Under the pieces are notes generated by a model. The model saw only the letters and a program-made list of their open reading frames with translations. It was not told where the DNA came from and made no database searches. A DNA stretch of 61,323 nucleotides, counting the filler. It is 5 parts of 5 records of this genome, joined end to end, with 100 filler letters (N's around TTAATTAATTAA, not from the genome) between each part and the next. Parts side by side here need not be neighbours in the genome. Positions count along the whole stretch, not along the records: positions 11,442 to 26,797 come from DRR723986_4023; 4 more parts are not named here. One strand, written 5' to 3'. Of the stretch, positions 11,342 to 26,897 are shown piece by piece; positions within the stretch are counted from its first letter, which is position 1, and every line of letters starts with the position of its first letter. The position numbers were made by a program, and so were the translations under genes.

Positions 11342-11441
11342 NNNNNNNNNNNNNNNNNNNNNNNNNNNNNNNNNNNNNNNNNNNNTTAATTAATTAANNN
11401 NNNNNNNNNNNNNNNNNNNNNNNNNNNNNNNNNNNNNNNNN
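11342..11441. other. Artificial contig spacer
   Basis: N-run flanking TTAATTAATTAA (stops in all six frames); genes are cut on both sides. Confidence 0.98.
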
Positions 11442-11831
11442 CATGAAGCCCTGACCGTCATAGTAGTTCACACCAGCAAAGTTCAGACCCAGCTGAGTGT
11501 CGCGGGACATGGTCCAGGTGGTGTTACGGGACAGAACATCAACTTCGCCGGACTGAAGCGCGGTGAAACGCTCTTTTGCGGACAGCGGAGTGTATTTCAC
11601 AGCGGACGCATCGCCGAACACTGCTGCAGCCATAGCGCGGCAGTAGTCAACGTCGATACCGGTCCAGTTCCCCTGAGCATCCGGGTTCGAGAAACCCGGC
11701 AGACCCTGGCTCACGCCACACTGAATGAAGCCCTTTGCCTTGACGTCTTCCAGCGTCGTTGCACCAGCAGCCGTCGTCGCGGCGACTCCCATAGCAGCGC
11801 CGATTACGAGCGGAAGGAATTTATTGGACAT
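11442..11831 (-). CDS. aapJ: General L-amino acid ABC transporter substrate-binding protein (AapJ/BztA), 3' truncated
   Basis: Signal peptide; CGVSQGLPGFS, KERFTALQSGEVDVLSRNTTWT and YYDGQGFM; divergent from metC as in rhizobia. Confidence 0.92.
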
Positions 11832-12301
11832 GGATATGCAGCCTTTATTTGTTACCCATACTTTTATTATGCCGGGTTTGTTCGAAAGACATCTTCTCCG
11901 TCTCTTGTAACCGGACGGATGCCAGCCTTGACGGCTGCTTCCTCCAGATATCTTTCGTCCCACCCAACGGTTCCATACGATGGCATTTAGCTGTTCGGGT
12001 CAAGTACTTGCTGCAGATATCTCGTCAAATTTCTCGAGCTATCCGCCATTTGCCATCAGGTTGGATGCACAAACAGCGAACATGTCTAAATCGAATTCAT
12101 TCAATGCCTAAAAAGGGTTCAATGCATTTAGCGGAGACCTTGCGAAGGTTAACGCTAATCGAAAAATTCTCCACACAAAGACCCGCGCCCAACACGTGAA
12201 ATGGCGGTTGCGACCATGACGCGAATGACTAAAGTGAGCGCTCGGCGCTCGGCAGCTCAATGTCGCGCCGCCTCTCGCAAAACACACACCCAAGAGCCTT
12301 C

Positions 12302-13480
12302 ATGTCTTCCACCAATTCCAAGCCGCCGTTGAGGCAGGATACCAAACTGGCGCATGCAGGGCGCGACCCGCTTGCATTTCACGGTTTCGTCAATCCGCCT
12401 GTCGTGCATGCTTCGACTGTTCTCTACCCCGACACCAAAACCATGGTGACGGGTGCCCAGAGCTATTCCTACGCCCGCAGGGGCAACCCGACCACGGACT
12501 CCCTTGAAGGGGCCATGAAGGAGATCGAAGGGGCAGCAGGGGTCAAGATCGCGAATTCGGGCTTGAATGCCATTGCATTGGCCATCCTGTCCTGCGTGAA
12601 ATCCGGTGACCACATCCTGATTGTCGATACGGCTTATGGACCGACTCGCCATTTCGCCGACACTGTTCTGCCTGGCATCGGGGTTTCCGTGACCTTCTAC
12701 GATCCGAAGATCGGCGCCGACATCAAGTCACTGTTCCAGGAAAACACGACAGCCGTGTTCACCGAGGCACCCGGCTCCCTCACCTTCGAGATGCAGGATG
12801 TTCCGGCGATTGCCGCCGAGGCCCGTGCAATCGGCGCGACCGTTCTGATGGACAATACCTGGGCGAGCCCGATTTACTGCCAGCCACTGTCCATGGGAGT
12901 CGATCTGTCGATCCAGGCGGGCACCAAATATCTTGTCGGACATTCCGACGCCATGCTTGGTACAGTCGCTGCCAGCGAACGTGCCTGGGAAAAACTGGAT
13001 GCGTTCTGTGGTGCCATGGGCTGCCACGTCGCACCGGATGACATCTACCTCGGCCTGCGGGGTCTCAGAACTCTGTCCGTGCGCCTTGAACGGCACCAGC
13101 GCAACACGCTAGCCGTGCTTGGCTGGCTGAAGGACCAGCCCAACATCGAACGCATCCGCTATCCGGGCCTTGAAACGGACCCTGGTCATGCCCTTTGGAA
13201 ACGTGATTTTTCGGGGGCCTCGGGCCTGTGCGCCTTCGACTTCAGTAAAAGCACGACACAGGAACAGGCCTACGCCTTCCTGGATGCGCTCACGCTATAT
13301 GGTCTTGGCTATTCGTGGGGTGGTTTTGAAAGCCTTGCCATTCCGGTTCGCCTCAAGGGCGGCCGCACGGCAACCCCGGTAAACCTGGATCGCCAGTCGG
13401 TTCGCCTCCACATCGGCCTGGAAGACCCGGAAGATCTGATTGCCGATCTGGATCAGGCACTGACGAAGGCATTCGGCTGA
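12302..13480 (+). CDS. metC: Cystathionine beta-lyase
   Basis: VNPPVVHASTV, MDNTWA, PLP lysine in GTKYLVGHSD, GYSWGGFESL and RLHIGLED. Confidence 0.93.
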   Translation: MSSTNSKPPLRQDTKLAHAGRDPLAFHGFVNPPVVHASTVLYPDTKTMVTGAQSYSYARRGNPTTDSLEGAMKEIEGAAGVKIANSGLNAIALAILSCVKSGDHILIVDTAYGPTRHFADTVLPGIGVSVTFYDPKIGADIKSLFQENTTAVFTEAPGSLTFEMQDVPAIAAEARAIGATVLMDNTWASPIYCQPLSMGVDLSIQAGTKYLVGHSDAMLGTVAASERAWEKLDAFCGAMGCHVAPDDIYLGLRGLRTLSVRLERHQRNTLAVLGWLKDQPNIERIRYPGLETDPGHALWKRDFSGASGLCAFDFSKSTTQEQAYAFLDALTLYGLGYSWGGFESLAIPVRLKGGRTATPVNLDRQSVRLHIGLEDPEDLIADLDQALTKAFG

Positions 13481-13508
13481 CAGACTGTCGAGCGAAGGGC
13501 GGAACGGC

Positions 13509-13823
13509 TCAGATCGTAGGGTCGTTCCGCTTTTCCTTGAAGATCAGCCACAGGTTCCGGAAATAGATTAGCAGACCCAGTCCCTGACCGGCGATGAAGA
13601 CCGGATCCTGTCGTTGAATGGCGTAGATCAGCAGCAGCGACCCACCCGCAACGGAAAAGAACCAGAAAGCGACCGGCACGATTGAGCGGCCGACGCGCTC
13701 GGATGCGATCCATTGAATGACGAAGCGCATCATGAACATGGCCTGGGCGAAGAAACCCAGAATGATCCAGAAGTCCAATTGCGCGATGAAAACCGCATGG
13801 ATCCATTCGTATAGAGCGCTCAT
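13509..13823 (-). CDS. Lipid A biosynthesis N-terminal domain (LAB_N) membrane protein
   Basis: RFVIQWIASE, PVAFWFFS, DPVFIAGQ and IYFRNL are typical of the LAB_N family. Confidence 0.9.
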   Translation of the reverse strand: MSALYEWIHAVFIAQLDFWIILGFFAQAMFMMRFVIQWIASERVGRSIVPVAFWFFSVAGGSLLLIYAIQRQDPVFIAGQGLGLLIYFRNLWLIFKEKRNDPTI

Positions 13824-13887
13824 GTCTCAGGTCCAGTCAGTGTTTTTGAAAGGTCGGCGGGCTTCTCCACCCGGATTGGGGCATTAA

Positions 13888-14649
13888 TCAGGTCAGCGGC
13901 CGGACATCCGGAATTTTTTTACGGCGGCGGCGCAGCCACCACACTCCGAACAGATCCAGCACACCGACCAGCGCCCTGTCAAAGATCCCGTATTTAGACG
14001 TTCCATGGCGCCGCTGCCGGTCCTGAACGTCGATATGGGTGACACCGTAACCCTCGCGGATCACGAGTGCGGGCAAGAACCGGTGCCAGCTGTCGAAGTA
14101 TGGCAGTTGCAGGAACACTTCCCGGCGCAGGGCCTTCAGGCCGCAACCGCTGTCGCGAGTGTTATCCCGCAGGATCGCGCCGCGCAGCTTGTTGGCAAAC
14201 TTCGACGCATAGCGCTTGGCCAGGCTGGCCTTGCGGCCAAGCCTTTGCCCGGCGGCAAGAGCAACTGCGGGGCCGGCAGCGTCGAGAGCGTCCAGAAGAG
14301 CCGGAATATAGGCGGGGTTGTTTTCGCCATCGCCGTCTATGGTCGCGACGACGTCGCCCCTCGCATTCAAAAGACCAGTACGCACCGCGCAGCTCTGGCC
14401 ACAAGACTTCTCGTGCCTGACCGGCCGCAGCCAGTCATGGGTTGCCGCGTAATCCTGCAACACGATATCCGTACCGTCGGACGAGCCGTCGTCGATGACG
14501 ATCACCTCGAAACGCCTGCCCTGCAATGCTGCCTCGATTTCATCCAGCAGGATGGGCAGGTTTTCCGCTTCGTCCTTTGCGGGAACCACGACCGTGACAG
14601 CGAGCGCGCCCTTGCTGGCCGCAACAGCTTCCAGATAGCTTTGTGTCAT
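13888..14649 (-). CDS. GT2 polyprenyl-phosphate glycosyltransferase (ArnC/RgtE-like)
   Basis: VVVPAKDE, IDDGSSDGT, IDGDGEN, DSGCGLK, HRFLP and GTSKYG motifs. Confidence 0.88.
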   Translation of the reverse strand: MTQSYLEAVAASKGALAVTVVVPAKDEAENLPILLDEIEAALQGRRFEVIVIDDGSSDGTDIVLQDYAATHDWLRPVRHEKSCGQSCAVRTGLLNARGDVVATIDGDGENNPAYIPALLDALDAAGPAVALAAGQRLGRKASLAKRYASKFANKLRGAILRDNTRDSGCGLKALRREVFLQLPYFDSWHRFLPALVIREGYGVTHIDVQDRQRRHGTSKYGIFDRALVGVLDLFGVWWLRRRRKKIPDVRPLT

Positions 14650-15557
14650 GCGCTTGTCCGTTCTGTCGTGTCTGCCGCAGGGGCCTCGGCCTCCACACGG
14701 TCAGCGCCGCGCTGGCCGCGCAGAACCTGCCAGACAGCCCGCACACAGGCCTTGGCAGACAGGACATTCATGTTGGGTACAATCTTTCCGGAGGAAGACA
14801 GGTGAAAGCCGATCCGCCGCCGGGCCATGGCACGAACCGTGAAAAAGGTGAACGTCATCCCCAATAGCGTGCCTGCGATGACGTCGCTGGGATAATGCGC
14901 CCCGACCATGACGCGGCTGAACGCAAGCCAGAAGCCCGCAACAATGATCAGCCACCGGTAGGCCGGGAAAATAAAGGCCAGCGCAGTTGCAAGTGCAGCG
15001 ACAGTGGTCGAATGACCAGAGGGGAAACTGGTGAAGGTGCCGTCGAAGGCCAGAAAGTCGAAGCGGACCGGACCAACTTCCTCGTAAAGCTTGGGACGCG
15101 CCCGGCCGAGCGACCACTTGAATGCAATGGCCAGAAGCCCCGTCGCGGCGACTGAATAAAAGATGAAGGCCGCATAAGTGAACACTGCGCCGATTGCCAT
15201 GCGCAGGCGGAATGCGTAGCGCCCGGCATCCAGCGCCAGCAGAAACAAGCAGCATAGACCGGTAGAAACGAGGATCCAGTCGGCCTTGCCGATATCGGTA
15301 AAGGTTCGGAAGGCGGCCCGGTATTCGCCCGGGAGAGAGCGCAGCCACGGATAGGTCGGAACATCGAACGCAACGACTGCAATGCCAACCGTCAATAAGA
15401 GGACTGCAAGGATATCCTGCGGCCGCTGCCCGGGAGGAAGCGGATCCCTGTTGTGGCGCGCACGTTCCCTGCGACCGGAAAACAGTATTGCAGCCCGCCG
15501 AGAATTCCCGCGCATGCGCGCCAGAACATGCCAGACAAATTTACTGCTGTTGCTCAT
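14646..15557 (-). CDS. lpxE: PAP2-family phosphatase, lipid A 1-phosphatase-like
   Basis: All three PAP2 motifs: KWSLGRARP, SFPSGH and SRVMVGAHYPSDV; operon context with ArnT-like and GT2 genes. Confidence 0.75.
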   Translation of the reverse strand: MSNSSKFVWHVLARMRGNSRRAAILFSGRRERARHNRDPLPPGQRPQDILAVLLLTVGIAVVAFDVPTYPWLRSLPGEYRAAFRTFTDIGKADWILVSTGLCCLFLLALDAGRYAFRLRMAIGAVFTYAAFIFYSVAATGLLAIAFKWSLGRARPKLYEEVGPVRFDFLAFDGTFTSFPSGHSTTVAALATALAFIFPAYRWLIIVAGFWLAFSRVMVGAHYPSDVIAGTLLGMTFTFFTVRAMARRRIGFHLSSSGKIVPNMNVLSAKACVRAVWQVLRGQRGADRVEAEAPAADTTERTSA

Positions 15558-17358
15558 TGCCGTCTTCTGAAACCGTCGTCGGCACGGACTTCTCATAAAG
15601 CCCGATATCGACATCGTCCCCGCCGTTGATATTGAGGCCGTCTACCCTTTTTACAGCCTCCGGCACAAGACCAATCTCCTTTGCGGCGGCCAAAAACGCG
15701 GCTTCTTCCCGGCTTTCTATTGCCGCGATACGGCAGGTAGCTGGATTCGCGGCTTCATCGGCAGCAAGAAATGCGGCGGCATCCTGCGCGGAAACGATCT
15801 TTGTCGTCGTGCCTTCCAGGAATATGAAACTGGGTTCGTGAAAGCCGGTGGTCACGACCAGACGGTTCGACTTGTCTGCACAACCGGGGATTTCGTCCAT
15901 GGCCGCGACAAGGCGCGGACTGACCCAGATCGGCGTAAGAGCTGGGCCGACAAAGCCCCAAAACCCGATGCTGACGCAGATCGCTGTCAGACAGATGGCG
16001 GGGAAAGCATAGAGTGCCGGTCCTCGCAGAACCCGGGATGCTGCTGCAATCGCAAAAACAGCTCCCACTGCAAGCAGAACGGCTCCGGGAGGTGACGGCC
16101 AGACACCCAGGGCAAAAGGACCGGCAAACGCGGCGACGGCCAACCCCAACGCAGGCACCGCCAGCAGCACTGCCGCTACCCAACGCAGCCACGTTCTCGT
16201 CGTGGCGCCAGCCCCCTCCATCAGCGCAGCAGCAACAGGTAGCGCGAGCGCAGGCAGCAGCGGCATTGTGTAATGCGGAAGCTTCGTTGCAACCAGTTCG
16301 AACACGATCCAGCTTGGGACGAACCAGGCAACGGCAAACGTCACCAGCGGACTTTTTCGTTCATGCCAGATGAGCGGCAAGGCAATCAGGAAGAATGCAG
16401 GCAAAGGCCAGAATATGCCGAACATCGCCCCGAGATGGGTAAGCGGGGGTGCTCCATGACCTTCCTGCCCCTGCCCGACCTTGCCAAGGAGGTCCTTGCC
16501 GATGGCTTCAGTAAAGAACGTTCCGTCCGTCGCGATCCAGATTGCCACAAACCAGGGTGAGACGAGCAGCACGAACCACAGCAGACCCGCGATTGGCGCC
16601 GTTCCCTTGAACCATGCAGCTTTCCGTTTCATGGCCATGAGGCCAACAACCGTAAGGCCAATCACCATGGGTCCAACCGGCCCCTTGATTAGGACACTGC
16701 CCGCAAGTGCAGTCCAGAACAGGAACCCAAGACCCCATAGCCGTTTGTCCGGATCCTTCAACCAGATCCGCGCCAGGGCACCTTGCGCTATTATGATCAT
16801 TGCAAACAGCGCGGCATCAGTTTTTGCCAGTCGCGCCTCGACGCCGACAATGATTGCCAGCGCCACGAAACCTGCGGCCAACAGCGCACCGGCAGGCCCC
16901 ATGAATGCCCGTGCGAGCCAGAAGGTTGCCAGAACGCTGATTATCGAGGCTATGACGGAAGGCAGTCGATAAGCCCAAAGCGGCGCGTCCGCCCCCTGCC
17001 CTGTCAGCTTTACGGCAGCTGCCTGAAGCCAATAGATCCCGACTGGCTTTTTGTGACGTGCCTGATCCTGAAAACGAATGTCGATGTAATCGTTCGTTTC
17101 CAGCATCTGCTTGGTTGCCTGGGTAAAGCGCGGCTCGTCCCTGTCCAGCGGTGGTACCGTCCATTGACCTGGTACGAACAAGGCAAGCGACAGGAGCAGC
17201 AGAAGGAACGGGGCAGTGATGTCGTGGCCGAAGATATGCAACCAGACCGGCTTCCGAACCGGGGCAGCCGACGGGCTGTCCACGTTGTCCTTGCGTTCGG
17301 AATTCCCGGCTGCCTTGCCTGCCGCCTCGGGCTTCTGATCGTCGCGCGTGTCCGACAT
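15541..17358 (-). CDS. ArnT/GT83-family lipid A glycosyltransferase
   Basis: DRDEPRF, HKKPVGIYW, YRLPS, EARLAKTD, LIKGP and TKLPHY motifs; many TM helices. Start taken at MSDTRD. Confidence 0.9.
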   Translation of the reverse strand: MSDTRDDQKPEAAGKAAGNSERKDNVDSPSAAPVRKPVWLHIFGHDITAPFLLLLLSLALFVPGQWTVPPLDRDEPRFTQATKQMLETNDYIDIRFQDQARHKKPVGIYWLQAAAVKLTGQGADAPLWAYRLPSVIASIISVLATFWLARAFMGPAGALLAAGFVALAIIVGVEARLAKTDAALFAMIIIAQGALARIWLKDPDKRLWGLGFLFWTALAGSVLIKGPVGPMVIGLTVVGLMAMKRKAAWFKGTAPIAGLLWFVLLVSPWFVAIWIATDGTFFTEAIGKDLLGKVGQGQEGHGAPPLTHLGAMFGIFWPLPAFFLIALPLIWHERKSPLVTFAVAWFVPSWIVFELVATKLPHYTMPLLPALALPVAAALMEGAGATTRTWLRWVAAVLLAVPALGLAVAAFAGPFALGVWPSPPGAVLLAVGAVFAIAAASRVLRGPALYAFPAICLTAICVSIGFWGFVGPALTPIWVSPRLVAAMDEIPGCADKSNRLVVTTGFHEPSFIFLEGTTTKIVSAQDAAAFLAADEAANPATCRIAAIESREEAAFLAAAKEIGLVPEAVKRVDGLNINGGDDVDIGLYEKSVPTTVSEDGNEQQQ

Positions 17359-17552
17359 CAACTTTCTTGTCCAGTTCCTGCGTCCGGTGTCCTGCGCCCG
17401 GTGTCCTGCGTCTGGGCGGTCGCCCCTGCCCGCCCGTTTCTGAACGCTTCTCCTACATGAGCTTTTCAAAAAGGGAAACTAGTGCTTGCCCTCTTCGAAC
17501 GCACGGTTATCGTCCGGGCAGATGATCCACCTGACGAGTCACAAGGTTTTCC

Positions 17553-18389
17553 ATGACATTGATTGCTCATATGACGGACCTGCATTTGCGTCCGCGAGGT
17601 TTGCCCTGCTATCGCGTTTCGGACACCAATATGCTTGCCGAGCGCGCGATCAAGTCGCTGCAGAGTCTCACCCCGAAACCTGATGCTCTCGTTATAACCG
17701 GCGATATAACCGACAGAAACGATCCAAGGGAATACGCACTCGCCCGCTCCATCCTCTCGCGCGTCGACATGCCTGTCTATCTTGTGCCCGGGAACCACGA
17801 CGGCACAGAAGTCATGCGCCGCGAACTCGGCAGCTTTCCGGGTCTTTCAGGCAGCCTTGAAGACAAGATCTGCTATACGGCGGACATTGGCGACATCCGC
17901 CTGATTGCGCTGGACACCCATATTCCGGGTGATCCGCGTGGTCGGCTCGGTCAGGCACAGCTTGACTGGCTCGACAGCCGGCTGCGCGAAAGTGCCAAGA
18001 CAACGCTGATCGCCCTCCACCACCCGCCTGCACTTTCCGGGATCCGACACATGGACGACATCGGACTTGTGGATGCCGATGCGCTTGCAGAAGTTGTTTC
18101 GCCACACCGGCATGTTGCGCGCTTCCTGTGCGGTCATCTTCACCGTCCGATCATCGCGAGCTTTGCCGGAAAGGTGATGACGCTTGCTCCCAGCACCGGT
18201 CACCAGGTCGTCCTCGACCTGACGGAAGACGGCCCTGCCATGTTCAACTTCGAACCCGCAGCCTATTTTCTCCACTATCATTCGCCGAAAACCGGAGTGG
18301 TGTCTCATATGGCCTACGTGGAAGCGTATGCTGGCCCGTACCATTTCTTCGCCGATGAAGGCGTCGTCTGGCCGGGAGATGAAACCTGA
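17553..18389 (+). CDS. Calcineurin-like metallophosphoesterase (CpdA/Icc/GpdQ-like)
   Basis: TDLH, ITGDI, PGNHD, LHHPP and CGHLH metal-binding motifs. Confidence 0.9.
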   Translation: MTLIAHMTDLHLRPRGLPCYRVSDTNMLAERAIKSLQSLTPKPDALVITGDITDRNDPREYALARSILSRVDMPVYLVPGNHDGTEVMRRELGSFPGLSGSLEDKICYTADIGDIRLIALDTHIPGDPRGRLGQAQLDWLDSRLRESAKTTLIALHHPPALSGIRHMDDIGLVDADALAEVVSPHRHVARFLCGHLHRPIIASFAGKVMTLAPSTGHQVVLDLTEDGPAMFNFEPAAYFLHYHSPKTGVVSHMAYVEAYAGPYHFFADEGVVWPGDET

Positions 18390-18937
18390 TGTCCGTAATC
18401 CCCCTGCCCAAACGCTTCTTGGCGCTGTTGCTGCTTGGCCTTTTCGCGGCCTCCCTCAGCGCCTGCGGCGCCTTGCCGGGAAAAAGCGACCTTGAAGACA
18501 AGACAGTGCTTACAGACCAGCCGATCGACAAGGCACAGATGCTGTCGATGATAAACGCCTACCGGCAGCAAAAAGGCTTGCCCGCTTTGCGCCACGACCC
18601 GGAACTGGATGTCGTTTCCCAAAAGATGGCACGCCATATCGCCGAGCGCGACAGTATGGACACCTGGGCTCACAGTGCCTTCGGTCTGTCACAACGGCTC
18701 GACAAGGCAGGATACGCAAATTACGCAGGCGCGGAAAACCTGGGTGCGGGATACGCTGATCTGGCAGCAGCCTTCCGTGGCTGGCAAGGCTCAGAAGGCC
18801 ACAACAAGAACCTTCTCAACCCCTACGTGACACGGGTAGGCATTGCCAGAACAAACCGCAACAATGGCAAATGGCGCAATTTCTGGGTGATGACACTGTC
18901 CCGCCCTTATGCGGACGGCCGACCGACCGTCCGATAA
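18389..18937 (+). CDS. CAP/SCP domain lipoprotein
   Basis: Lipobox LSAC; INAYR, AENLGAG and WQGSEGHNKNLL motifs; 1-nt overlap with the upstream gene. Confidence 0.9.
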   Translation: MSVIPLPKRFLALLLLGLFAASLSACGALPGKSDLEDKTVLTDQPIDKAQMLSMINAYRQQKGLPALRHDPELDVVSQKMARHIAERDSMDTWAHSAFGLSQRLDKAGYANYAGAENLGAGYADLAAAFRGWQGSEGHNKNLLNPYVTRVGIARTNRNNGKWRNFWVMTLSRPYADGRPTVR

Positions 18938-18948
18938 CAAGACACCTG

Positions 18949-18974
18949 GAAAAAGGGCGGAGCCAAGCTCCGCC
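18949..18974 (-). terminator. Intrinsic terminator downstream of the YcaO gene
   Basis: 8-bp stem GGCGGAGC/GCTCCGCC (18956-18974) followed on the minus strand by CTTTTT. Confidence 0.6.
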
Positions 18975-19088
18975 AAAAGGCTTCTTCCAGAGATCGAATG
19001 ACCCAGTTGTCATCCGGACGCCTCGCAAACAAAACATGAATGCACGGCTCATATTTTATTAAGGCCGGCGCATCAGCCTGTCAATCGT

Positions 19089-20525
19089 TCAAAAGGGAAA
19101 TAGTCGGGCGGCAAATTCGGCTTCGGACGCGGGAATGTCTCGCAAACCACGCTCTACAACCCCGTCGAACAACCTTTTTTTGCCGAACCTTGGCTCCCAA
19201 CTGCAAAGCTCGGGGGACAACAGCTTGATGCAGGGAATTGCAAGGTCTTGGCGGGTCGCATCAAACTCCCAAAGGCTGATCTCGCGGTCGAAACAACCCT
19301 GAAGCAGAGTTTCAAAAGTCGAGGTCTTCTCCAGAACCTCAGGACGGGCGGCAACCGCACCCCGAAAAGGCAGATCCTCGAATATCACGCGCTCTCTGGC
19401 ATACGCCAGCTGCCTGGGTAGCGACCTCAGCGCTTTTTTTGTGCCGTGACTGGCGGGATAGGATTTGTCCATCAGAGACAGAGCATTTTCCGATTGCAAC
19501 ATTTCCTGAATTGCACTGGTGCAGGCCTGTGCGGTGTCCCAACCGGCGGATGATCCAAACGCACCCCCCCGGCCGTAAACGTCATGAGAGACACAAATCA
19601 CCACCTGGACCGGCAGGTCCGTGTCGACGTGCAAGAGCTCCCATTCCCGCGGCTGATCATCGAGATATTGGACCAGATCAGGAGGGAGCATTTCCCTCAC
19701 ATAGCCTTCAGGTAGAGAAGTTATCCCCAGGCGGTTGTACCAGGCCTGCGCAACTGCATCACGCTCTACAAGCTCAAGAAGCGCGCGCGCGCGCGCTCCC
19801 TCAAGGTCATGCCAGACAGCGCATCCTACGCTTGAAGCAAAGGGCAAACGTAAGCCCGTAACGTCATCGGCTTCGTTAAACAAAATTCCCAAACTAAGGC
19901 ACTGCGCCTCTTCATCAGTCTGCAGATTTCGCAACCGGACACGCCTGGCTGAAAGAGATGACCAGTCTGAAGAGTTGACGCCCGAAAGATCTCGTCCGAG
20001 ACGGAGCCTGCCGAGAGCGACACTTGCCTGACCTTCACTCAATCCAAGCAATCGGCCGAAATCTACCTGTGGTTGTTTTTTGTCGTAAGTGAACACCCTA
20101 TTGTCACTAATCCCGATACTACAAAGGGTTAGCCTTTCGGAAAGCTCTCCAATACAACTAATAGCTGCAATTGATGCGATATCCCCCTGTCCACCGGCAG
20201 GAATTGGTGCCCCCACAGCTGGTACTTCTTTTGCATCAGTTTCAGGCGACTTGAGTAACCCGGTGCAAAAATGCACCGGGCATCCGGGGCGTGTCATCGG
20301 GACCAGTCTTGGGGAGAATGACGAAAGCAGCTTCAGGAAAAGACGAAGGTCCGGCTCCAGCAAGCGCACACGATCTCCCTCAACGCCCGGCTCCACCGCT
20401 ATCAGGCCCAAACGCGACAGGTCCGCAAGTACGTCGTCCGCAAATCCACTTTCAACGATCATAGAAGAGACACCGCCGCCAACAGTGAGGATGCGGAACG
20501 GCTGCTTATGTTTTGATATGGCCAT
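19089..20525 (-). CDS. Stand-alone YcaO-family protein (RiPP cyclodehydratase-like)
   Basis: ATP-binding motifs SCIGELSER and SSVGCA...ALLELVERDAVAQAWY; C-terminus PELCSWEPRFGKKRLF...FPF resembles TOMM D-protein tails. Confidence 0.88.
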   Translation of the reverse strand: MAISKHKQPFRILTVGGGVSSMIVESGFADDVLADLSRLGLIAVEPGVEGDRVRLLEPDLRLFLKLLSSFSPRLVPMTRPGCPVHFCTGLLKSPETDAKEVPAVGAPIPAGGQGDIASIAAISCIGELSERLTLCSIGISDNRVFTYDKKQPQVDFGRLLGLSEGQASVALGRLRLGRDLSGVNSSDWSSLSARRVRLRNLQTDEEAQCLSLGILFNEADDVTGLRLPFASSVGCAVWHDLEGARARALLELVERDAVAQAWYNRLGITSLPEGYVREMLPPDLVQYLDDQPREWELLHVDTDLPVQVVICVSHDVYGRGGAFGSSAGWDTAQACTSAIQEMLQSENALSLMDKSYPASHGTKKALRSLPRQLAYARERVIFEDLPFRGAVAARPEVLEKTSTFETLLQGCFDREISLWEFDATRQDLAIPCIKLLSPELCSWEPRFGKKRLFDGVVERGLRDIPASEAEFAARLFPF

Positions 20526-20629
20526 TTACTTCGCCTCACCCTGCAATTGCACACAACGTAGATTAACAAAACTGCCATTGAGCGAGTTCATTCCCTCGTT
20601 CTACATTCTATTCGAAAGCAGTCGATCAG

Positions 20630-20662
20630 TAGTAAACAGTCTCAATACATAACTATTTACTA
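20630..20662. promoter_or_regulatory. Candidate operator (inverted repeat) in the divergent ycaO/precursor promoter region
   Basis: TAGTAAACAGT-N11-ACTATTTACTA, 10 of 11 positions complementary, in an AT-rich spacer. Confidence 0.4.
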
Positions 20663-20746
20663 AAGTTTGACCGAATTTCAAAAAGCCAGGTGACCATCCC
20701 ACCACCAGGCAGGACACATTGCAACTCAACCTATCGGAGGCTCATA

Positions 20747-21037
20747 ATGCACGCTGACACAACTTCCCGGACTGAACTGGAAATTGGCGCGAAACTTGGC
20801 GCGATCATTCAGAACGCCACAGCACGTGAGCGGCTGGTTGCCAACCCGGCTGAAGTCCTGGCTGAAGTTGGCATCAACTCCGATGCCGCAATCTTCGCCG
20901 ACACTGCTGACCTCGTCCACCTCATCATCCCGGCAGAAATCGATGCAGCGCGCGTTGCTGCTGGCGATGAGAAATATTTCGAAGAACTCGGTAAAGCAGC
21001 TCTCGGCAATTGCTTTTACGAAGACGTCCCGGAGTAA
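20747..21037 (+). CDS. NHLP-like putative RiPP precursor (96 aa) with C-terminal tail CFYEDVPE
   Basis: GGAGG RBS at 20736-20740; IIQNATARERLVANPAEVLAEVGI...DTADLVHLIIP follows the nitrile-hydratase-leader pattern; single Cys near the C-terminus; adjacent to YcaO. Confidence 0.72.
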   Translation: MHADTTSRTELEIGAKLGAIIQNATARERLVANPAEVLAEVGINSDAAIFADTADLVHLIIPAEIDAARVAAGDEKYFEELGKAALGNCFYEDVPE

Positions 21038-21064
21038 GCCGGTAAGGTCGTCACGATACGTCTC

Positions 21065-21101
21065 CGGCCTTCTTGCTTCGCGCAGGAAGGCCGTCGTTCT
21101 T
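21065..21101 (+). terminator. Intercistronic stem-loop (weak terminator or mRNA stabiliser) after the precursor gene
   Basis: 12-bp stem CGGCCTTCTTGC/GCAGGAAGGCCG (one G-U pair), loop TTCGC, imperfect U-tract TCGTTCTTT. Confidence 0.55.
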
Positions 21102-21117
21102 TCCGATTGGGGTAACG

Positions 21118-21405
21118 ATGGCCAGATTTCCCTACTACCAGAGCAACGTCAAAGACCTTGGCAAACTCATCGCCAGGGCAGCGACCGACGAAAACTTCCG
21201 ACGCGAGCTCGAGCGAGACCCGTTAGCCGCAATTTCCAATATTGGCCTGCCGAAAGAGACGGTGGCGCTCATGCGGTTCAAGATCGTCGATCAGAAAAAC
21301 AATCCGAACGCCGTAGCTCTGCCTTTTCGTCTGAACGAAGAAAAGCTGAACAGTGCTAATGAGGAGTATCTGAAAGCTCTGTCTTCGACCTTCGCGCTAA
21401 ATTGA
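21118..21405 (+). CDS. Second NHLP-like protein (95 aa) without a Cys tail
   Basis: KLIARAATDENFRRELERDPLAAISNIGLP closely follows the NHLP consensus; C-terminal 26 aa align without gaps to the first paralog. Confidence 0.75.
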   Translation: MARFPYYQSNVKDLGKLIARAATDENFRRELERDPLAAISNIGLPKETVALMRFKIVDQKNNPNAVALPFRLNEEKLNSANEEYLKALSSTFALN

Positions 21406-23391
21406 ACCGGAACCGTCGAACAGGAACCGCTGCACCAAGGCTGCGCCCTTGTCGAAATCGTTTCGCACTTTCTCGTTCTGGAAGAAATTGATCTTCTTTC
21501 TCCAGCTCTTGGGGTCCTGCGCAAGCTCGGGAGAGTTTTTCAGCAAGGCAGCACGGTTTTCACCAAAGCGCTCAAGCGTTTGCATGGCTTCTTCTTCTCG
21601 CCCGGCACAGACCAAAGCGGCCACACGAGTGGTCAAGCCACTGATACCAACCCCGGCGCCCCGCTCTATCTGCTTTATCGCGCTGTCGTAATCTTCCGCG
21701 GCAAAATAGATGTTCGCCAGGTACTCGTAGAAAACGCGGGGAACAAACGCGAAGAGTGAGAAAGCTCTTTCAGCCGTAACGCGTGCTTCGTTGATGTCGC
21801 CGGAAAAAGCCAGGCCCTCTGCGACGGACATCAGGTTGGCCGGATCAGCCGAGCTCAGACGGCCGGCGTTCTGGAATGCTCTTCGCGCCTCGTCAGGCAT
21901 ATTGGACAGAATAAGTGCCCAACCATAAACACGCTGATTTACCGCCTGCCAGGGATCGAGCCTGATCGATTTTTCGGCAAGGTTCAGGAGATTGTTTTCT
22001 TCACCGGAAAACGTCTTATCCATGAGCGGGAAATGCAATTCCTGCTTCATGATGATTGACGCTTTGCCTGCATACGTCATCGAGAACGAACGATTTGTGC
22101 GCTCCAGATCATCCAACAAGCGCATCGCTTTTTCGTCGGATTGCGGCGTGAAATCCCACAACAGGGCTTCCGCCTGACACCAACGGGCGAAAACGGATGT
22201 TTTCGCGGGGTTTCTTAGTCTGCTGGTCGCGTGGTTATGGATGCGGCTCACAATCTGGCTCGCAGCCGGCACCAGACCGTCCCAGTATTGCAGGTCAATT
22301 ATCTCGTTAAAGACAATCTGACCGTTGCCCCTGTCCTCGAACTGGACAACCACTTTGCCCGATCGCTCGTCATGCCGGAACCTGAGCAGATAACAGCCAA
22401 GTTCGTGGCCTTCCATCAAGGTTGGACGTGGCACGTTTTCTTCGCCGAAATACTCAGATTCAAACAGCTCGAACGACCGAAACGAGGAAAGGCCGGAAAC
22501 GATTTCCTCTCGCAGATGGATCGCGTCGTTCAGCCCTTTTTTCAACAGGGATGACGAGACAATGGAAATTTCTGGCAAGGGAACGAAGTCATCGTAATTT
22601 GGCAGGAACCCTCGGTTTCCGCCGCTGTTGCCATCACTTCTACCAACCGGCACCGGAGAAGGTTCGACCTCCGATGCGATCAGCAGCTTCCGCGTCTCCT
22701 CATCGGGCTCAGCATCCAGATGGAGCCGCATTTCCCTTTCGCAAGACCTGAGCTGCTGTTCGGCGCGCTCGGGCTGGCCCAGATTCATGTAGAGACGAAT
22801 AAGAACGCGATGGGCCGCTTCAAACGCGGGATCGAGCTTCAGGACAAAACGCGCCCCGGCCTCTGCCTGCACACCCCCGTCTTCCGTGGATATCCTGTTC
22901 AGATGCTTGAAGGCGGCGCTGATGAGTTCTGAACGCACCCGTTCACGCTCGACCGTCAGCCACTCGGAAAATTCAGAATCGATATCGTCGTAGCCGGTCA
23001 GGAACTCGCCGCGCCACAGTTCCCCCGCCTTGCGGAAATCAGCTGCCTGCCCACGTTCCAGAAGCGTATTCATGGCCATGAGATCAGACGCAAACGCCGA
23101 TGGGTCGAGTTGAATGTGACCTGGCGCTGAGCGCACTACATCGATGCCTGCCGTTTCTTCGGCGCTCTTCAATTGGCGCAATGCCTGACGCAAGGATTGC
23201 ATTGCCTTGTGGCGGTCTGTCCCGCTCCAAAGCAAATCCGCCAGTGCTTCCCGGGGCGACGCCATACCGCTCATGCGGCTCAGATAGCCCATGATCGCCA
23301 GAGCCTTGCGGGTTTTGACCGCCACAGGTTCCTGGTCGCTATCAAGGAGCAAAGGCCGCCCAAGGCATGCAAAGCAGGACGCGATTGCCAT
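21397..23391 (-). CDS. SARP-like transcriptional regulator (wHTH + BTAD + TPR-like C-terminus)
   Basis: TRKALAIMGYL, REALADLLW, SLRQALRQLK, LWRGEFL, DPAFEAAHRVLIRLY and LDAEPDEET are BTAD hallmarks; helical repeat C-terminus; GGGGA RBS before ATG 23391. Confidence 0.87.
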   Translation of the reverse strand: MAIASCFACLGRPLLLDSDQEPVAVKTRKALAIMGYLSRMSGMASPREALADLLWSGTDRHKAMQSLRQALRQLKSAEETAGIDVVRSAPGHIQLDPSAFASDLMAMNTLLERGQAADFRKAGELWRGEFLTGYDDIDSEFSEWLTVERERVRSELISAAFKHLNRISTEDGGVQAEAGARFVLKLDPAFEAAHRVLIRLYMNLGQPERAEQQLRSCEREMRLHLDAEPDEETRKLLIASEVEPSPVPVGRSDGNSGGNRGFLPNYDDFVPLPEISIVSSSLLKKGLNDAIHLREEIVSGLSSFRSFELFESEYFGEENVPRPTLMEGHELGCYLLRFRHDERSGKVVVQFEDRGNGQIVFNEIIDLQYWDGLVPAASQIVSRIHNHATSRLRNPAKTSVFARWCQAEALLWDFTPQSDEKAMRLLDDLERTNRSFSMTYAGKASIIMKQELHFPLMDKTFSGEENNLLNLAEKSIRLDPWQAVNQRVYGWALILSNMPDEARRAFQNAGRLSSADPANLMSVAEGLAFSGDINEARVTAERAFSLFAFVPRVFYEYLANIYFAAEDYDSAIKQIERGAGVGISGLTTRVAALVCAGREEEAMQTLERFGENRAALLKNSPELAQDPKSWRKKINFFQNEKVRNDFDKGAALVQRFLFDGSGSI

Positions 23392-23571
23392 CAATTCCCC
23401 GTAATTGAAATGCACGCTTCAGCCGTCGCCTTCGCGCAACCGCGAATATCACGCAACCTGAAACACAACAGCACCTTATCACGCTCATTTCACGCTGCAA
23501 CAGCATGCTTTAATCGGATGGTCACAGCAGCGACGCTGCAATCGGCAAATCAAATACTGGTGGGTAGTAAA

Positions 23572-23826
23572 ATGTCTAAGACCGTTAGCAAATCGGACCG
23601 CACTGAACTCGAGCAGGAGCCTGCAATCGAGGCGATCAAGCGCATGATCCGCTACACGAAAAAAGAATCGGACAAGGACGGCCGTACGTTCTGTTCCTAT
23701 TTCCTAGATATGGCTCTTCAGTCCCTGGAAGATGGTTCCGAGGACGTGGACATGATCCTCAAAACAAAGATCACGCCGCTCATGGTTGGCCAGAAGGTGG
23801 AATCGGGAAAGTCCGAGACGCTCTGA
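23572..23826 (+). CDS. Small hypothetical protein (84 aa) divergent from the BTAD regulator
   Basis: ATG 23572; helical pattern with YFLDMA; followed by a terminator. Confidence 0.6.
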   Translation: MSKTVSKSDRTELEQEPAIEAIKRMIRYTKKESDKDGRTFCSYFLDMALQSLEDGSEDVDMILKTKITPLMVGQKVESGKSETL

Positions 23827-23853
23827 CCTTCAGGCGAATCGCGGTCTGGAAAC

Positions 23854-23898
23854 ACCGCCGTGCTCCTATATTGCAGGGGCCGGCGGTTTTTGTTTTTT
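23854..23898 (+). terminator. Intrinsic terminator
   Basis: ACCGCCG...CGGCGGT stem followed by TTTTGTTTTTT. Confidence 0.6.
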
Positions 23899-24018
23899 GC
23901 AGGCTTTTTCCAAGTACCCGACTTGAACGTCCAGTTTAGGACATCTGCACGGCAGGAAGCCTTTCCACGCATGGTAGAGGCATCGAAGCTCAGGACTTAT
24001 TCAAAAAAATCAGGGAGA

Positions 24019-24095
24019 TGGCGACTCCGGCAGGATTCGAACCTGCGACCATTCGCTTAGAAGGCGAGTGCTCTATCCAGCTGAGCTACGGAGCC
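24019..24095 (-). tRNA. tRNA-Arg(UCU)
   Basis: GGCTCCGTAGCTCAGCTGGATAGAGCA...CT-TCT-AA...GGTTCGAATCC...CGCCA; 77 nt with encoded CCA. Confidence 0.97.
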
Positions 24096-24331
24096 AATTT
24101 CTCAGGAACGCAAACCGTTCCCAGATGAGACTATCAGGCAGTATCTCTGAGGCCTGCCAGACGTTCATGCAAACTTGAATCGAGACCAAACGTCCGGAGG
24201 CAACCCGATCCGGCGATCGCCTCCACTGCCCTAATGCGTCAAAAACCCGGCTCGTGTCGATTCGAAATCGGCGCTTTCAACAGACAATCCGATCTCTTAC
24301 CGAACAGGTCAGAGGAGCCGAACGTTCTTGT

Positions 24332-24637
24332 TCAGTGGGTCCAGGGCGCAGACCGGTTGAATTTGAAATTGTCCGCATAGGCAGACCCGCGCACTTTGCG
24401 TTCCTGGGCTTTCTCAACCCTGTGCAGAATGCCATGGCGCTTCGCATATGCGACAGCTTCTTCTGAAGTCTCGAAATAGAGCCGGATTTGCTGCTTCATG
24501 TCGGAAGACGACGTGTAGCCCATCAAAGGTTCGACGGACTTGGCGACCTCCGGCTCGTAATCCAGCACCCATCTCTGGGTTTTCGCCTTGCCTGACTGCA
24601 TGGCGGTTTTCGCCGGACGGTAGATACGCGCAACCAT
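24332..24637 (-). CDS. ETC complex I subunit (NDUFS4-like)
   Basis: ARIYRPAKTAMQSG, EPLMGYTSSSD and YADNF motifs. Confidence 0.93.
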   Translation of the reverse strand: MVARIYRPAKTAMQSGKAKTQRWVLDYEPEVAKSVEPLMGYTSSSDMKQQIRLYFETSEEAVAYAKRHGILHRVEKAQERKVRGSAYADNFKFNRSAPWTH

Positions 24638-24985
24638 GTGACAGTGCCCTCAAGTCTGAATATGTGAGATGCAATTCCTTACAGCAGCTTTTTCCCGCCT
24701 TTGCCGCCGGTGTCAACACCGATATTGGCCGCAACCCGCAATCTTCGGTTCGGCGACGACTCATTTAACAGCACAAGTATGTATTAACGGTGTTGGTGGA
24801 GAGGCGATTTATGACATTCACGTAACATGACATGGAGGCGCAACTCATGCTATTAACTACCCTAACGTGAACTTGTCTGGAAGACGCCGATTTTCGGAAC
24901 GCAGTGCAGGTTCAAAAAATACAGAATCGCAGGGCCGGACAGCCTGAAAGGGCCGATCCAAAGATCAAAACGATAAGGCTTTGAC

Positions 24986-25234
24986 ATGCATTACGAATTT
25001 CTGAAAAGACTGGAAGGCTATGTTCCGGAACATGTTCGGCCGGTTACCAGAGCGCCGAAAAAAATTGCGCCGGTCGAACTGAAAGCGGCGATCGACGACG
25101 CCAATCTCACTGAAATGTGGGACATGATCCTGACGCTGGACTATTCGGTTTCCGATCCCACCGATCTGTCACCGGAAAAACGCGACGAATTCCTGAATGT
25201 CATGTCGCTGTTGTTGAAAGCCTTCGACCGGTAG
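24986..25234 (+). CDS. Hypothetical protein (82 aa)
   Basis: Clean ATG ORF with protein-like composition and no overlap with neighbours; no family recognised. Confidence 0.6.
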   Translation: MHYEFLKRLEGYVPEHVRPVTRAPKKIAPVELKAAIDDANLTEMWDMILTLDYSVSDPTDLSPEKRDEFLNVMSLLLKAFDR

Positions 25235-25321
25235 AAATGGTTATTGGCAAACGGCCAAACATGTGCGGTGTCCCTGGTCGATTTTTACCGGATGGAACAA
25301 ATCAAAACATGAGAGAGGACT

Positions 25322-25828
25322 GTGCTAACACGCCCTGATACTCATTTTTCGGAACTCGGCACACAGGCCATTGAAAAAGGGCTTGCCGACCCGGCTGTGT
25401 CTGCGTTCTACGACAGCATCATGTCGACCGATGCGGTTCAGATCCAGCAATGCCTGAAACCGTTCCTGCCTCATTTGAGCCTTTGCTCGGACAAGATGCC
25501 CGGCAACGCTCCCCCTCCGATATTCTATGTCGGCAAGGAAAGTGGGCAGCGACACTTGTTCGGCGAAGACTGGGCAAGCCCGGCGACACCCGCCTGCGGT
25601 CTGCGCACACCTGATCCGGACCTGGAGAAGGCTTCGGCGGAAGGTTATCGCAAGGCTTTGGAAGGCACGCCTTATTACGGCTACGCCCACACGAAAATTC
25701 AGGTCAATGGCGAACTCTATGAAGTTGCGTTCGAGCGGTTGATCGTCGCCGTGCGACCTTCGTTGCAATCCGATCTTCGCTTCTGCGCCTACCTGGGCGT
25801 CATTCAGGATCTTCAGCGGACGTCCTAA
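25322..25828 (+). CDS. Hypothetical protein, possible PAS-like (PAS_5-type) domain
   Basis: GAGGA RBS before GTG; FLPHLSL...FYVG...FERLIV pattern resembles stand-alone alphaproteobacterial PAS proteins. Confidence 0.5.
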   Translation: MLTRPDTHFSELGTQAIEKGLADPAVSAFYDSIMSTDAVQIQQCLKPFLPHLSLCSDKMPGNAPPPIFYVGKESGQRHLFGEDWASPATPACGLRTPDPDLEKASAEGYRKALEGTPYYGYAHTKIQVNGELYEVAFERLIVAVRPSLQSDLRFCAYLGVIQDLQRTS

Positions 25829-26519
25829 GGATAAGTTTTACAAGGCCGTGTAGATCTCCTCTGGTGGCATAGACCAGCCAGTCATCCGGCCTGATATGTC
25901 CAGGCGCAATCTCCCAATGCGTTCCGCGTGGCACGAACCTGCGGTAACCGACCCGGATGCCAAAGCCTTTTTCTGCGCTTTTTGCGGCCATCAGGCCATA
26001 GAGATAGTCCGGCGACCACTTCAATAGTGAGAGCAGAAACCCCAACTGGGTCAAAGGCTCGGCAAGGCCCTGCCCCCGGATGTCCCGTCTCAGCCAGAGA
26101 TTGCCGTGATAGACGATACGCCCGCGCATGAAATAGGCGTCATGCGCGTGCTCTGTCCCGAACCGAACCTGAGGGTTTGGATCGACAAAGATCCTGCGTT
26201 GCTGCTGATGCCAGTGCTCGGCAAGGCTCCTGTCTTTCAGGTCTTCCACCTTTGCAGCTTGCACAGACACGACGTTACCATGGTTGTTGACGGCCCCTAC
26301 CCAGAACGCGGTCGTCCCGTGCAGGTCGAAAAACCGCGGTGAAAAATCTTCCATCAGGTATTTGTCTTCGGTGCTCCGGACGGTTTTTTCGAAAAGCGCA
26401 AAATCCGCGCTTTCCTTCAGAGAAAGCCCGGCCTTTTCAATTCTGGACTGCAGTACGGCTATCGCCGCCGATACATCCAGCGTCGCCTGGTCGTCAGGAT
26501 CCGGTATCATCAGCCCCAT
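25800..26519 (-). CDS. Hypothetical protein, possible GNAT/acyltransferase-like fold
   Basis: YHGNLWLRRDIRGQGLA resembles GNAT motif A; start uncertain (26510-26636). Confidence 0.55.
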   Translation of the reverse strand: MGLMIPDPDDQATLDVSAAIAVLQSRIEKAGLSLKESADFALFEKTVRSTEDKYLMEDFSPRFFDLHGTTAFWVGAVNNHGNVVSVQAAKVEDLKDRSLAEHWHQQQRRIFVDPNPQVRFGTEHAHDAYFMRGRIVYHGNLWLRRDIRGQGLAEPLTQLGFLLSLLKWSPDYLYGLMAAKSAEKGFGIRVGYRRFVPRGTHWEIAPGHIRPDDWLVYATRGDLHGLVKLILRTSAEDPE

Positions 26520-26740
26520 CCGGCGCGGCCTGCATGCCGTCGCAAGCGGCGTCACTCCCACAGGCATTGGAAACGCCCGTCTGACCAGTCTGTTATGCGG
26601 CGATAAGTTGCACAAGACGCCTGCGTAGCTTGGCACTAGTTATCCCGGCCTTTAGGCACGGAACCACAGCAAGCGCATGGATTTGCATTGCAAAGCCCAG
26701 CGAACGCGTACCGCATCACATCGATTATCAGGAGAACGAA

Positions 26741-26797
<57 letters not shown>

Positions 26798-26897
26798 NNN
26801 NNNNNNNNNNNNNNNNNNNNNNNNNNNNNNNNNNNNNNNNNTTAATTAATTAANNNNNNNNNNNNNNNNNNNNNNNNNNNNNNNNNNNNNNNNNNNN
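26798..26897. other. Artificial contig spacer
   Basis: N-run with TTAATTAATTAA. Confidence 0.98.

Follow-up and report, generated by a model that had tools for sequence, protein, structure and literature searches.

What can a YcaO enzyme modify, and how, when it is encoded beside two small proteins and a regulator and away from the partner proteins that usually accompany it? This question is raised by a block of five genes at positions 19089-23826 of a stretch of DNA of 61,323 nucleotides (the window, that is, the whole stretch that was analysed). The window consists of contigs joined via runs of N, and only positions 11442-26778 are contiguous with the block. The five genes encode a YcaO protein, two small proteins (A and B) that resemble peptides of the nitrile hydratase leader peptide (NHLP) type, a BTAD-TPR regulator, and an 84-residue protein (p84). 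A preliminary description of the window had presented the block as a candidate undescribed system for a peptide that is ribosomally synthesized and modified after translation (RiPP), in which one modification is made on a short Cys-containing tail. An open reading frame (ORF) map places all five genes at the coordinates that were claimed. A literature search on YcaO in combination with Roseibium, Labrenzia, Stappia, Pannonibacter, Stappiaceae, and stand-alone YcaO/NHLP gave nothing on the locus among the papers listed, so that no publication was found that contradicts its being undescribed; the supplementary YcaO clade lists of RiPP genome-mining papers, which could include the clade, were outside its scope.

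In this analysis, we examine the type of the YcaO enzyme, the nature of the two small proteins, and the distribution of the block among related bacteria. From the comparison of sequences, we consider it somewhat more probable than its negation that the enzyme, acting with no partner protein, would close a thiazoline ring at Cys89 of A, with B as a helper that consists of a leader only. The evidence comes from the resemblance of the enzyme to the cyanobactin heterocyclases, the invariant Cys at a fixed place in the tail of A, and the persistence of the YcaO-peptide pairing in loci with different flanks. The features of the block are as follows.

18956-18974, minus strand: terminator-like hairpin about 115 nt past the YcaO stop (8 pairs, 7 of them G-C, then a T-rich tail)
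19089-20525, minus strand: YcaO, an ORF of 478 aa with PF02624
20526-20746, no strand assigned: divergent control region between YcaO and A, with an inverted repeat, conserved blocks and a ribosome-binding site
20747-21037, plus strand: small protein A, 96 aa, NHLP-clan domain and Cys tail
21065-21093, plus strand: stem-loop in the A-B spacer, G+C-rich (12 pairs, 8 of them G-C)
21118-21405, plus strand: small protein B, 95 aa, paralog of A in the NHLP clan, without the module Cys
21397-23415, minus strand: BTAD-TPR regulator resembling Streptomyces antibiotic regulatory proteins (SARP-like), 672 aa, convergent with B
23572-23826, plus strand: p84, an orphan protein of 84 aa, divergent from the regulator
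23873-23893, plus strand: terminator-like hairpin after p84 (9 pairs and a T run)

The YcaO enzyme

The stand-alone YcaO that had been proposed at 19089-20525 is a clear member of the Pfam family PF02624 (E 9e-27; 94.7 bits where the cut-off is 25.7; residues 112-440). Its true start is probably Met22, at about position 20462, because the homologs are about 457 aa long and residues 1-20 of the 478-aa ORF neither align with them nor fold confidently in the model. The AlphaFold2 (AF2) model of the enzyme has a pLDDT of 87.8 and a pTM of 0.88. When this model was searched with Foldseek the top match was LynD (4v1v, E 1.5e-22), and LynD, MusD, and TruD were the best matches; archaeal and E. coli YcaOs and McbD were matched as well. 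A profile of the clade searched against the PDB gave TruD at 1.5e-33, LynD at 1.3e-31, and MusD at 2.7e-23, and the thioamide-type MJ1094 at 1.5e-7.

The alignment with TruD and LynD reaches the last residue. The motifs ELVERD, WYNR, D-x-T-R-x-D, R-F-G-x-x-R-L, and a terminal P-F are common to the three proteins and invariant in 31 members of the clade. The same 31 members have the invariant acidic and other polar residues E127, E130, R131, E251, E254, R255, D256, E341, and Q344; these residues align with TruD and LynD and presumably include those that bind ATP and Mg. The C-terminal end aligns with the ...P-T-P-M-P-F of TruD and LynD, and a Pro-rich C-terminus is described as typical of azoline-forming YcaOs (PMC8442711). 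The clade profile covers only LynD residues 390-775. The half that holds the RiPP recognition element (RRE) and the E1-like domain is absent, and about 90 residues stand in its place. Judged by these alignments, the enzyme is cyanobactin-heterocyclase-like, with the E1-like/RRE half either lost or never present.

The same paper states that azoline-forming YcaOs normally require an E1-like or Ocin-ThiF partner and that the two bottromycin YcaOs work without one (PMC8442711). Among 10 ORFs tested around the block with Pfam and NCBIfam models, no E1-like protein, Ocin-ThiF, TfuA, or C39 peptidase-ABC exporter was detected, which upholds the earlier claim that the usual partners are missing from the block. 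The search was extended to five carrier genomes, all from relatives and including G055, whose YcaO is 96% identical. The E1-like docking domain (cyclo_dehyd_2, TIGR03882) was found in 0/5 of them, where the Ocin-ThiF model was not searched; a SagB dehydrogenase scored over the cut-off in none of the five, and a C39 peptidase was present in one, with none in the block. In a second, overlapping set of genomes, TfuA was found in three of five carriers (G001-G003) and not in the other two. There it directly adjoins a second YcaO of 407 aa, about 150 kb from the block, and the two, missing from G004 and G005, probably form a thioamidation pair of their own.

The small proteins A and B

A and B are related to each other and to the NHLP clan at a considerable distance. 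As a single sequence, B matched NF038399 at 1.8e-7 (31.1 bits against a cut-off of 40), TIGR04509 at 5.8e-7 (29.5 against 34), and TIGR03793, whose cut-off is 50.9 bits, at 9.4e-6 with 25.4 bits; A matched TIGR03793 at 0.013 with 15.4 bits. Sub-threshold matches to TIGR03793 at E<=0.01 were obtained for 27/35 B homologs and 15/35 A homologs. BLASTP of the window copy of A against that of B gave no match, and hhalign of the two profiles (35 homologs each) gave 98.1% and E 7.6e-14. Against the PDB, the profile of B found the nitrile hydratase alpha subunit at 4.3e-5 and 8tb1, an NHLP structure determined by nuclear magnetic resonance (NMR), at 0.067. For the profile of A, 8tb1 was the top match, at an E of only 0.53. 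For A, AF2 gave a low-confidence model (pLDDT 64.6, pTM 0.33, with helices predicted in residues 2-40), and a Foldseek search with this model found no match. By these profile comparisons, A and B are distant paralogs that are NHLP-like at the clan level and below the level of the family cut-offs. The twin NHLP-like genes of the preliminary description are retained in that clan-level sense, while the family assignment itself falls short.

The tail of A holds a module of fixed spacing. It can be written as ...Y77-x11-C89-x7, and D74, Y77, G82, A85, L86, and C89 are invariant among 35 homologs. The Tyr and the Cys are 12 residues apart in all 35 sequences. Counted from the C-terminus, the Cys is 8 residues away in 57/58 homologs and 9 in the remaining one, and in 56 of the 58 it is the sole Cys of the protein. 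B has no Cys at the module site, and the tail that follows its NHLP body is short and variable, from 0 to about 30 residues. What is conserved in B is the N-terminus, M-[A/P]-R-[F/I]-P in 58/58 family loci (M-A-R-F-P in the window copy); in a count of 59 sequences, with the outgroup locus L059 among them, 44 have Asn at the C-terminus. Because B lacks the module Cys, the two proteins are not equivalent precursors, and the short Cys-containing tail that had been described is real and invariant in A and confined to it. A leader that ends in Gly-Gly and is followed by a variable core was not seen in either protein, since A ends in L-G-x-C and seven conserved residues and B is nearly tailless. From these features A is probably the substrate of the YcaO.

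In public databases the enzyme is named 'YcaO-like family protein' and A is a 'hypothetical protein' at NCBI; in UniRef several copies of A are named 'NHLP leader peptide family natural product'. One 945-kb contig of Roseibium denhamense encodes two A-type proteins, P0226 and P0228 (97 and 100 aa), which suggests that this species has a second copy of the peptide gene. A prediction of the complex of YcaO with A returned a score of 0.00, which is no answer and weighs neither way on binding.

Distribution, outgroups and the putative ancestral peptide

In the databases, about 99 relatives of the YcaO score E 9e-51 or better, all named Roseibium, Labrenzia, or 'Pseudomonadota', and the next YcaOs follow only at E 2e-14. 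Among 76 genome loci that were fetched, 60 belong to the YcaO clade, and these come from Roseibium, Labrenzia, Stappia sp., Pannonibacter, and metagenome-assembled genomes (MAGs). The preliminary description had asked whether the five genes travel together, and they do. With tblastn, A, B, and the regulator were each found at 58 of the 60 family loci and p84 at 57, and the misses arise because contigs end at or inside the block. The flanking genes are in the same order, with the CAP gene at 59/60 loci, the phosphoesterase at 53/60, and the glycosyltransferase at 56/60. Additionally, YcaO is present in 77 of 132 species genomes of the family of G002 (the centre genome), in one copy each. Because the block and its flanks are syntenic and the YcaO is single-copy across the family, the comparison of loci indicates that the locus is a vertically inherited chromosomal fixture of this family of marine bacteria and not a mobile island. 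In Pannonibacter (L055-L057 and L061) the phosphoesterase flank is replaced, between YcaO and the CAP gene, by a gene for a Tim44-like domain protein; this extra gene next to YcaO was considered as a part of the system and rejected, as the protein that it encodes is unrelated.

The genes of the block evolve at different rates. In median identity to the window copy, B (45%) and YcaO (48%) are lowest, the regulator (57%) and A (61%) intermediate, and p84 and the CAP flank (both 77%) highest. In the closest species (L001-L003) the YcaO gene is 53-77% identical in nucleotides and about 63% identical in protein, and its neighbours are 80-87% identical in nucleotides (flanks and YcaO-A spacer) and about 90% identical in protein. 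This divergence suggests that the enzyme alone underwent allelic replacement or evolves fast.

Two outgroup loci show the system in a reduced form. L062, from a MAG, has YcaO, one peptide, a BTAD-TPR regulator, and an ORF like p84 (hidden Markov model (HMM) E 5.3e-6) within quite different flanks. L059 has only YcaO and one peptide, and its flanks are unrelated to those of the family. The single peptide of these loci starts with M-A-R-I, ends in ...L-G-C-x5 or ...D-G-C-x3, and matches the HMMs of both A and B with E values of 1e-12 to 2e-15. An exhaustive profile search for the peptide family gave 34 cluster representatives, of which 20 were fetched. In fourteen of these a single peptide starts M-[A/P]-R-[F/I/L], after extra residues in two of them, and has the Tyr and the Cys tail; the others include two B-type proteins, one low-complexity sequence, and two tandem NHLP proteins. 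In this wider family both the Tyr and the Cys are invariant in 15/15 aligned sequences, at a distance of 12 residues, and one sequence outside the alignment has a spacing of 13. The metagenomic homolog P0354 carries the unit Y-L-x2-L-G-x6-C-A-H-T three times, like the multi-core precursors of RiPPs. Two metagenome scans with the single peptides, made for their genomic context, found nothing. In an even sample of Alphaproteobacteria the peptide models matched in 4/401 genomes, namely G002 and three genomes that match only the leader part of the model.

Because the outgroup peptides combine the M-A-R-[FI] start of B with the G-C end of A, we infer that A and B arose by duplication and a division of labour, in which A would have kept the Cys end and B the N-terminal end. 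From the same sequences we infer that the YcaO-peptide pair is the functional core of the system and that the Tyr-x11-Cys unit is what would be recognised and modified.

Proposed mechanism

In the reaction that we propose, the YcaO would use ATP to activate the backbone amide before Cys89 of A, and the thiol of Cys89 would then close a thiazoline with the loss of 18 Da. The ring would be expected to stay at the azoline level because no dehydrogenase is present. Recognition would be local, through the spacing-locked module D-x2-Y-x3-L-G-x6-C at the end of A, and the putative folded NHLP-like domain of A would assist it. B, having kept the ancestral N-terminus and a leader-like body and lost the Cys, would serve as a helper (an adaptor, trans-activator, or titrator) and not as a second substrate. 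The BTAD-TPR protein would control the divergent promoters, and p84 would be accessory. The conserved tail, the vertical inheritance, and the absence of a protease or exporter make it probable that modified A acts within the cell, a role that is compatible with the signalling idea of the preliminary description.

Further evidence bears on this proposal, besides the resemblance of the enzyme to TruD and LynD. Cys89 is pointed to as the target by the fixed position of the Cys, the Tyr-Cys spacing, and the triple repeat of P0354. The link between enzyme and peptide is supported by the A/B genes divergently adjoining YcaO in 58/60 loci and by L059 and L062, which keep the pairing despite different flanks. 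Action without a partner is supported by the carrier genomes, in which the E1-like domain and SagB are each found in 0/5 and TfuA in only 3/5, and by the bottromycin precedent.

A more elaborate version of the signalling idea would join all five genes. B would supply the docking N-terminus in trans (a 'split leader') and A the Tyr-x11-Cys tail, and the thiazoline-bearing protein or a fragment of it would serve the BTAD-TPR regulator and p84 as a ligand or partner inside the cell, which would make the block an autoregulated circuit inherited vertically throughout the family. We regard this joint reading as unlikely.

Several observations weigh against thiazoline formation on A by a cyanobactin-type enzyme. 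Every match of A and B to the NHLP clan is below the curated cut-offs, and with a model of low confidence the NHLP fold of A is putative. The azoline-forming MprC and NstD act on NHLP leaders and rely on an RRE domain (PMC12455567). As the RRE is absent here, leader recognition would have to differ from that of MprC and NstD. The enzyme scores 72.1 bits with TIGR03604 (the SagD family), below the cut-off of 219.25, and its window copy ends in R-L-F-P-F where the clade consensus reads R-P-F-P-F. No gene of the block evolves faster than YcaO and B, and this could reflect a YcaO-B rather than a YcaO-A relationship. Finally, the conserved 'core' of A and the invariant N-terminus of B could equally fit small regulatory proteins in which the Cys has another role.

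Alternative explanations

The tail of A may be the substrate of a different chemistry, such as a thioamide formed without TfuA, an amidine, or ATP-dependent cleavage of a peptide bond like that of MusD. MusD is among the three closest solved relatives of the enzyme, and its activity is known from the title of the PDB entry (7u58, 'YcaO-mediated ATP-dependent peptidase activity'); as no protease is encoded in the block, cleavage by the YcaO itself would be economical, and TfuA is not universal in carriers. However, the thioamide-type MJ1094 is far more distant than LynD and TruD (1.5e-7 against 1e-31 to 1e-33), and the invariant residue is a Cys at fixed spacing, as azoline formation needs, which makes another chemistry at this site rather unlikely in our view. 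It is also conceivable that B, or both proteins, are modified at the N-terminus M-[A/P]-R-[F/I]-P, with the NHLP body as a follower peptide as in bottromycin. The conservation of this pentapeptide in 58/58 family loci, and of M-[A/P]-R-[F/I/L] in the wider family, would be explained, as would the similarly fast evolution of B and YcaO, and the bottromycin YcaOs are partner-less and one of them uses an N-terminal amine (PMC8442711). Yet A has lost that N-terminus while its Cys module is invariant, the enzyme resembles azoline formers, no aminopeptidase is encoded in the block, and a conserved N-terminus could equally serve docking or translation. We hold such a modification to be very doubtful.

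The remaining two explanations differ in where the product would act. If the product were a secreted RiPP or bacteriocin of the conventional kind, genes away from the block, or housekeeping functions, would provide the leader protease and the exporter. NHLP-type precursors and YcaOs are typical parts of RiPP systems, and the multi-core homolog P0354 and the hairpin of the precursor gene would fit; this explanation is nevertheless distinctly unlikely given that a C39 peptidase was not found in 4/5 carrier genomes, that no exporter or protease lies in the block at any of the 58 loci with flanks compared, and that a conserved 'core' and a single chromosomal position among housekeeping genes are unlike competition-driven bacteriocins. 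Alternatively, the target of the YcaO could be an unrelated cellular protein, as in the cases of McrA and the ribosomal protein uL16, with A, B, and p84 as small regulators that only share the locus. Protein-modifying YcaOs exist in Pseudomonadota (PMC13063428), and the three small proteins have the look of folded ones. The adjacency of YcaO and peptide persists, however, in two outgroup loci with unrelated flanks, one of which has neither regulator nor p84, and the TfuA-linked second YcaO of close relatives is a better candidate for a housekeeping role, so that an unrelated target is highly improbable.

Comparison with known systems

The closest solved relatives of the enzyme, by sequence and by predicted fold, are LynD and TruD, which belong with PatD to the enzymes that act on PatE-type precursors; ELVERD, WYNR, and the C-terminal P-F are held in common. 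A Cys is the target in the cyanobactin systems and is the proposed target here, and P0354 is multi-core like PatE. The differences are in size and setting. Cyanobactin heterocyclases are about 775 aa long and have an N-terminal half with the RRE and E1-like domain, whereas the window enzyme has only about 90 extra N-terminal residues; the block has no protease, macrocyclase, or oxidase, and what is presumed to be the substrate is a folded NHLP-like protein in which one Cys is conserved.

The likeness in substrate is greatest with MprC/MprE and NstD/NstC, which likewise combine an NHLP-type folded leader, a YcaO, and a Cys target. NHLP leaders adopt a fold, and the MprC RRE binds them via an L(X)4L motif and helix alpha-1 (PMC12455567). 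As read from the sequence, with the alignment to 8tb1, a comparable hydrophobic pair lies four residues apart after a conserved Pro in both small proteins (I65/V70 in A and L72/L77 in B). The MprC system uses RRE binding, a dehydrogenase (MprD), and ten variable cores, whereas the block has no RRE or dehydrogenase, one conserved tail, and a Cys-less paralog that consists of a leader only. The bottromycin YcaOs, which make the thiazoline and the macroamidine, are stand-alone like the window YcaO and work with no E1-like, Ocin-ThiF, or TfuA partner (PMC8442711). The bottromycin system differs in its N-terminal core with a follower peptide and in its many tailoring genes; none of its YcaOs was among the PDB matches, and the relation in sequence was not compared.

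A looser relative was found in Mesorhizobium. The cassette of L065 encodes a haem peroxidase, a small protein of 133 aa, a BTAD/TPR regulator, and a YcaO. This YcaO is also stand-alone (27% identity to the window YcaO), the regulator is homologous to that of the window over residues 29-623 (BLASTP 1e-24), and the small protein has a Cys-bearing tail, like A. In contrast to the window block, L065 carries an animal-haem-peroxidase gene (PF03098, 5.2e-9) and has no p84 and no twin peptides, and its 133-aa protein is unrelated to B (hhalign 0.5%) and is not matched by the HMM of A or B. Because the regulator is homologous while the small protein is unrelated to B, the window cassette is a distinct branch of a wider alphaproteobacterial theme.

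Taken by its kind, a YcaO that acts on an NHLP-type substrate is known. What is unusual here is that the RRE, E1-like domain, dehydrogenase, protease, and exporter are all missing, and that the block has a pair of paralogs made up of a presumed substrate and a protein that is probably leader-only, a conserved tail, an orphan fifth gene, and vertical inheritance throughout the family.

The regulator, p84 and the control regions

The regulator contains a BTAD domain (PF03704, 2.3e-9, 38.2 bits against a cut-off of 22.1), and the families TPR_14, TPR_2, and TPR_19 score over their cut-offs. A winged helix-turn-helix (wHTH) had also been assigned to it; this part of the assignment drew no Pfam match at E<=0.1 and no PDB match with phmmer for residues 1-260 at E<=1. 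The L065 regulator shares conserved sequence with the window protein over residues 29-110. The 84-aa gene divergent from the regulator is real, as p84 is conserved in 57/60 loci with a median identity of 77% and a core of K-R-M-I-x-[YF]-T...K-D-G-R-x-F-C-x-Y. It matched no Pfam or NCBIfam family, and the Atlas gave only unnamed clusters below 0.9. Its 99 database relatives are all 'hypothetical' or unnamed, and the named organisms are almost all Roseibium and relatives.

The spacer between YcaO and A contains an inverted repeat (20621-20640 / 20652-20671), the block GTGACCATCC at 20690-20699, and a GGAG ribosome-binding site at 20736-20739, and these blocks are conserved in most of 25 aligned upstream regions. 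The spacer is 81-84% identical in nucleotides to those of L001-L003, where the identity inside YcaO is 53-77%. The inverted repeat and the conserved blocks are candidate operator sites for the regulator. A search for repeats in the two control regions found only short repeats and no clear SARP-like pattern.

When A-B spacers were folded singly, a long perfect or near-perfect stem was present in 20/20, with stem sequences that differ. The folding z was <= -2 in 14 of the 20, and that of the window spacer is -1.83. RNAalifold found no consensus among 29 A-B spacers because their alignment is poor. The stem-loop is a probable partial terminator or mRNA-stabilising hairpin, judging from its predicted fold, and its presence in all 20 spacers fits unequal expression of A and B. 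Hairpins downstream of many precursor genes lead to differing levels of the gene products.

The block is covered by contigs from RNA libraries (X2, X3, X4, and X13), which as contigs cannot show transcription, strand, or level and may stem from carry-over of DNA. The X3 and X4 contigs break within the YcaO-A spacer. The 22-kb contig of X13, from a related strain, matches the window well over YcaO and A (74 differences in 2738 bases) and also over the 5' part of the regulator and p84. Starting exactly at the stop codon of A, it has 962 dissimilar letters in place of 855 window bases, and the divergence takes in most of the regulator's TPR half, up to 22682, so that the tract spans 21037-22682. 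B and the regulator's sensor half thus vary jointly, as a single tract, via recombination or co-variation.

The window and the flanks of the block

The runs of N lie at 11342-11441, 26779-26897, ~40821, and ~54660, and a six-frame stop linker, TTAATTAATTAA, is present within them at 11386, 26842, 40821, and 54660, which shows that the window is several contigs joined artificially. The G+C content is 0.70-0.73 beyond 56 kb of the window, and the last piece may come from another organism.

The block is flanked by a metallophosphoesterase-like ORF, a CAP-domain protein, a tRNA-Arg, and an NDUFS4-like protein, and an Rfam search found no RNA family besides the tRNA. The 3' ends of the regulator and B overlap by 9 nt. 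Terminators had been said to bound the block, and hairpins are indeed found at both ends (18956-18974 and 23873-23893), in a terminator scan whose overall yield, 11 hairpins where 7.5 +/- 2.8 are expected, does not exceed chance. Three ORFs of 82, 168, and 278 aa at 24986-26636 have no Pfam or NCBIfam family; they adjoin the NDUFS4-like gene and are conserved in 22-31 of the 60 loci. A tRNA-like sequence at 26700-26778, at the end of the contig that holds the block, was not called by ARAGORN because the N run cuts it.

Significance

If the proposed modification of A is true, the block would be a minimal natural test case for a LynD-like YcaO that recognises a folded NHLP substrate without an RRE or an E1-like domain. 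How a YcaO recognises its substrate without these is an open question for both the enzymology and the engineering of RiPPs, and the system would also reveal the purpose of a paralog that is a leader only. Together with the peroxidase-bearing cousins, it would belong to a broader and unstudied theme in Alphaproteobacteria, in which a YcaO, a BTAD-TPR regulator, and a Cys-tailed small protein are combined. The fixed chromosomal position, the conserved 'core', and the lack of an exporter and protease suggest that the product has a physiological role, as a modified small protein or a signal, and such a role would widen the uses of YcaO chemistry beyond antibiotics and the few protein targets that are known.

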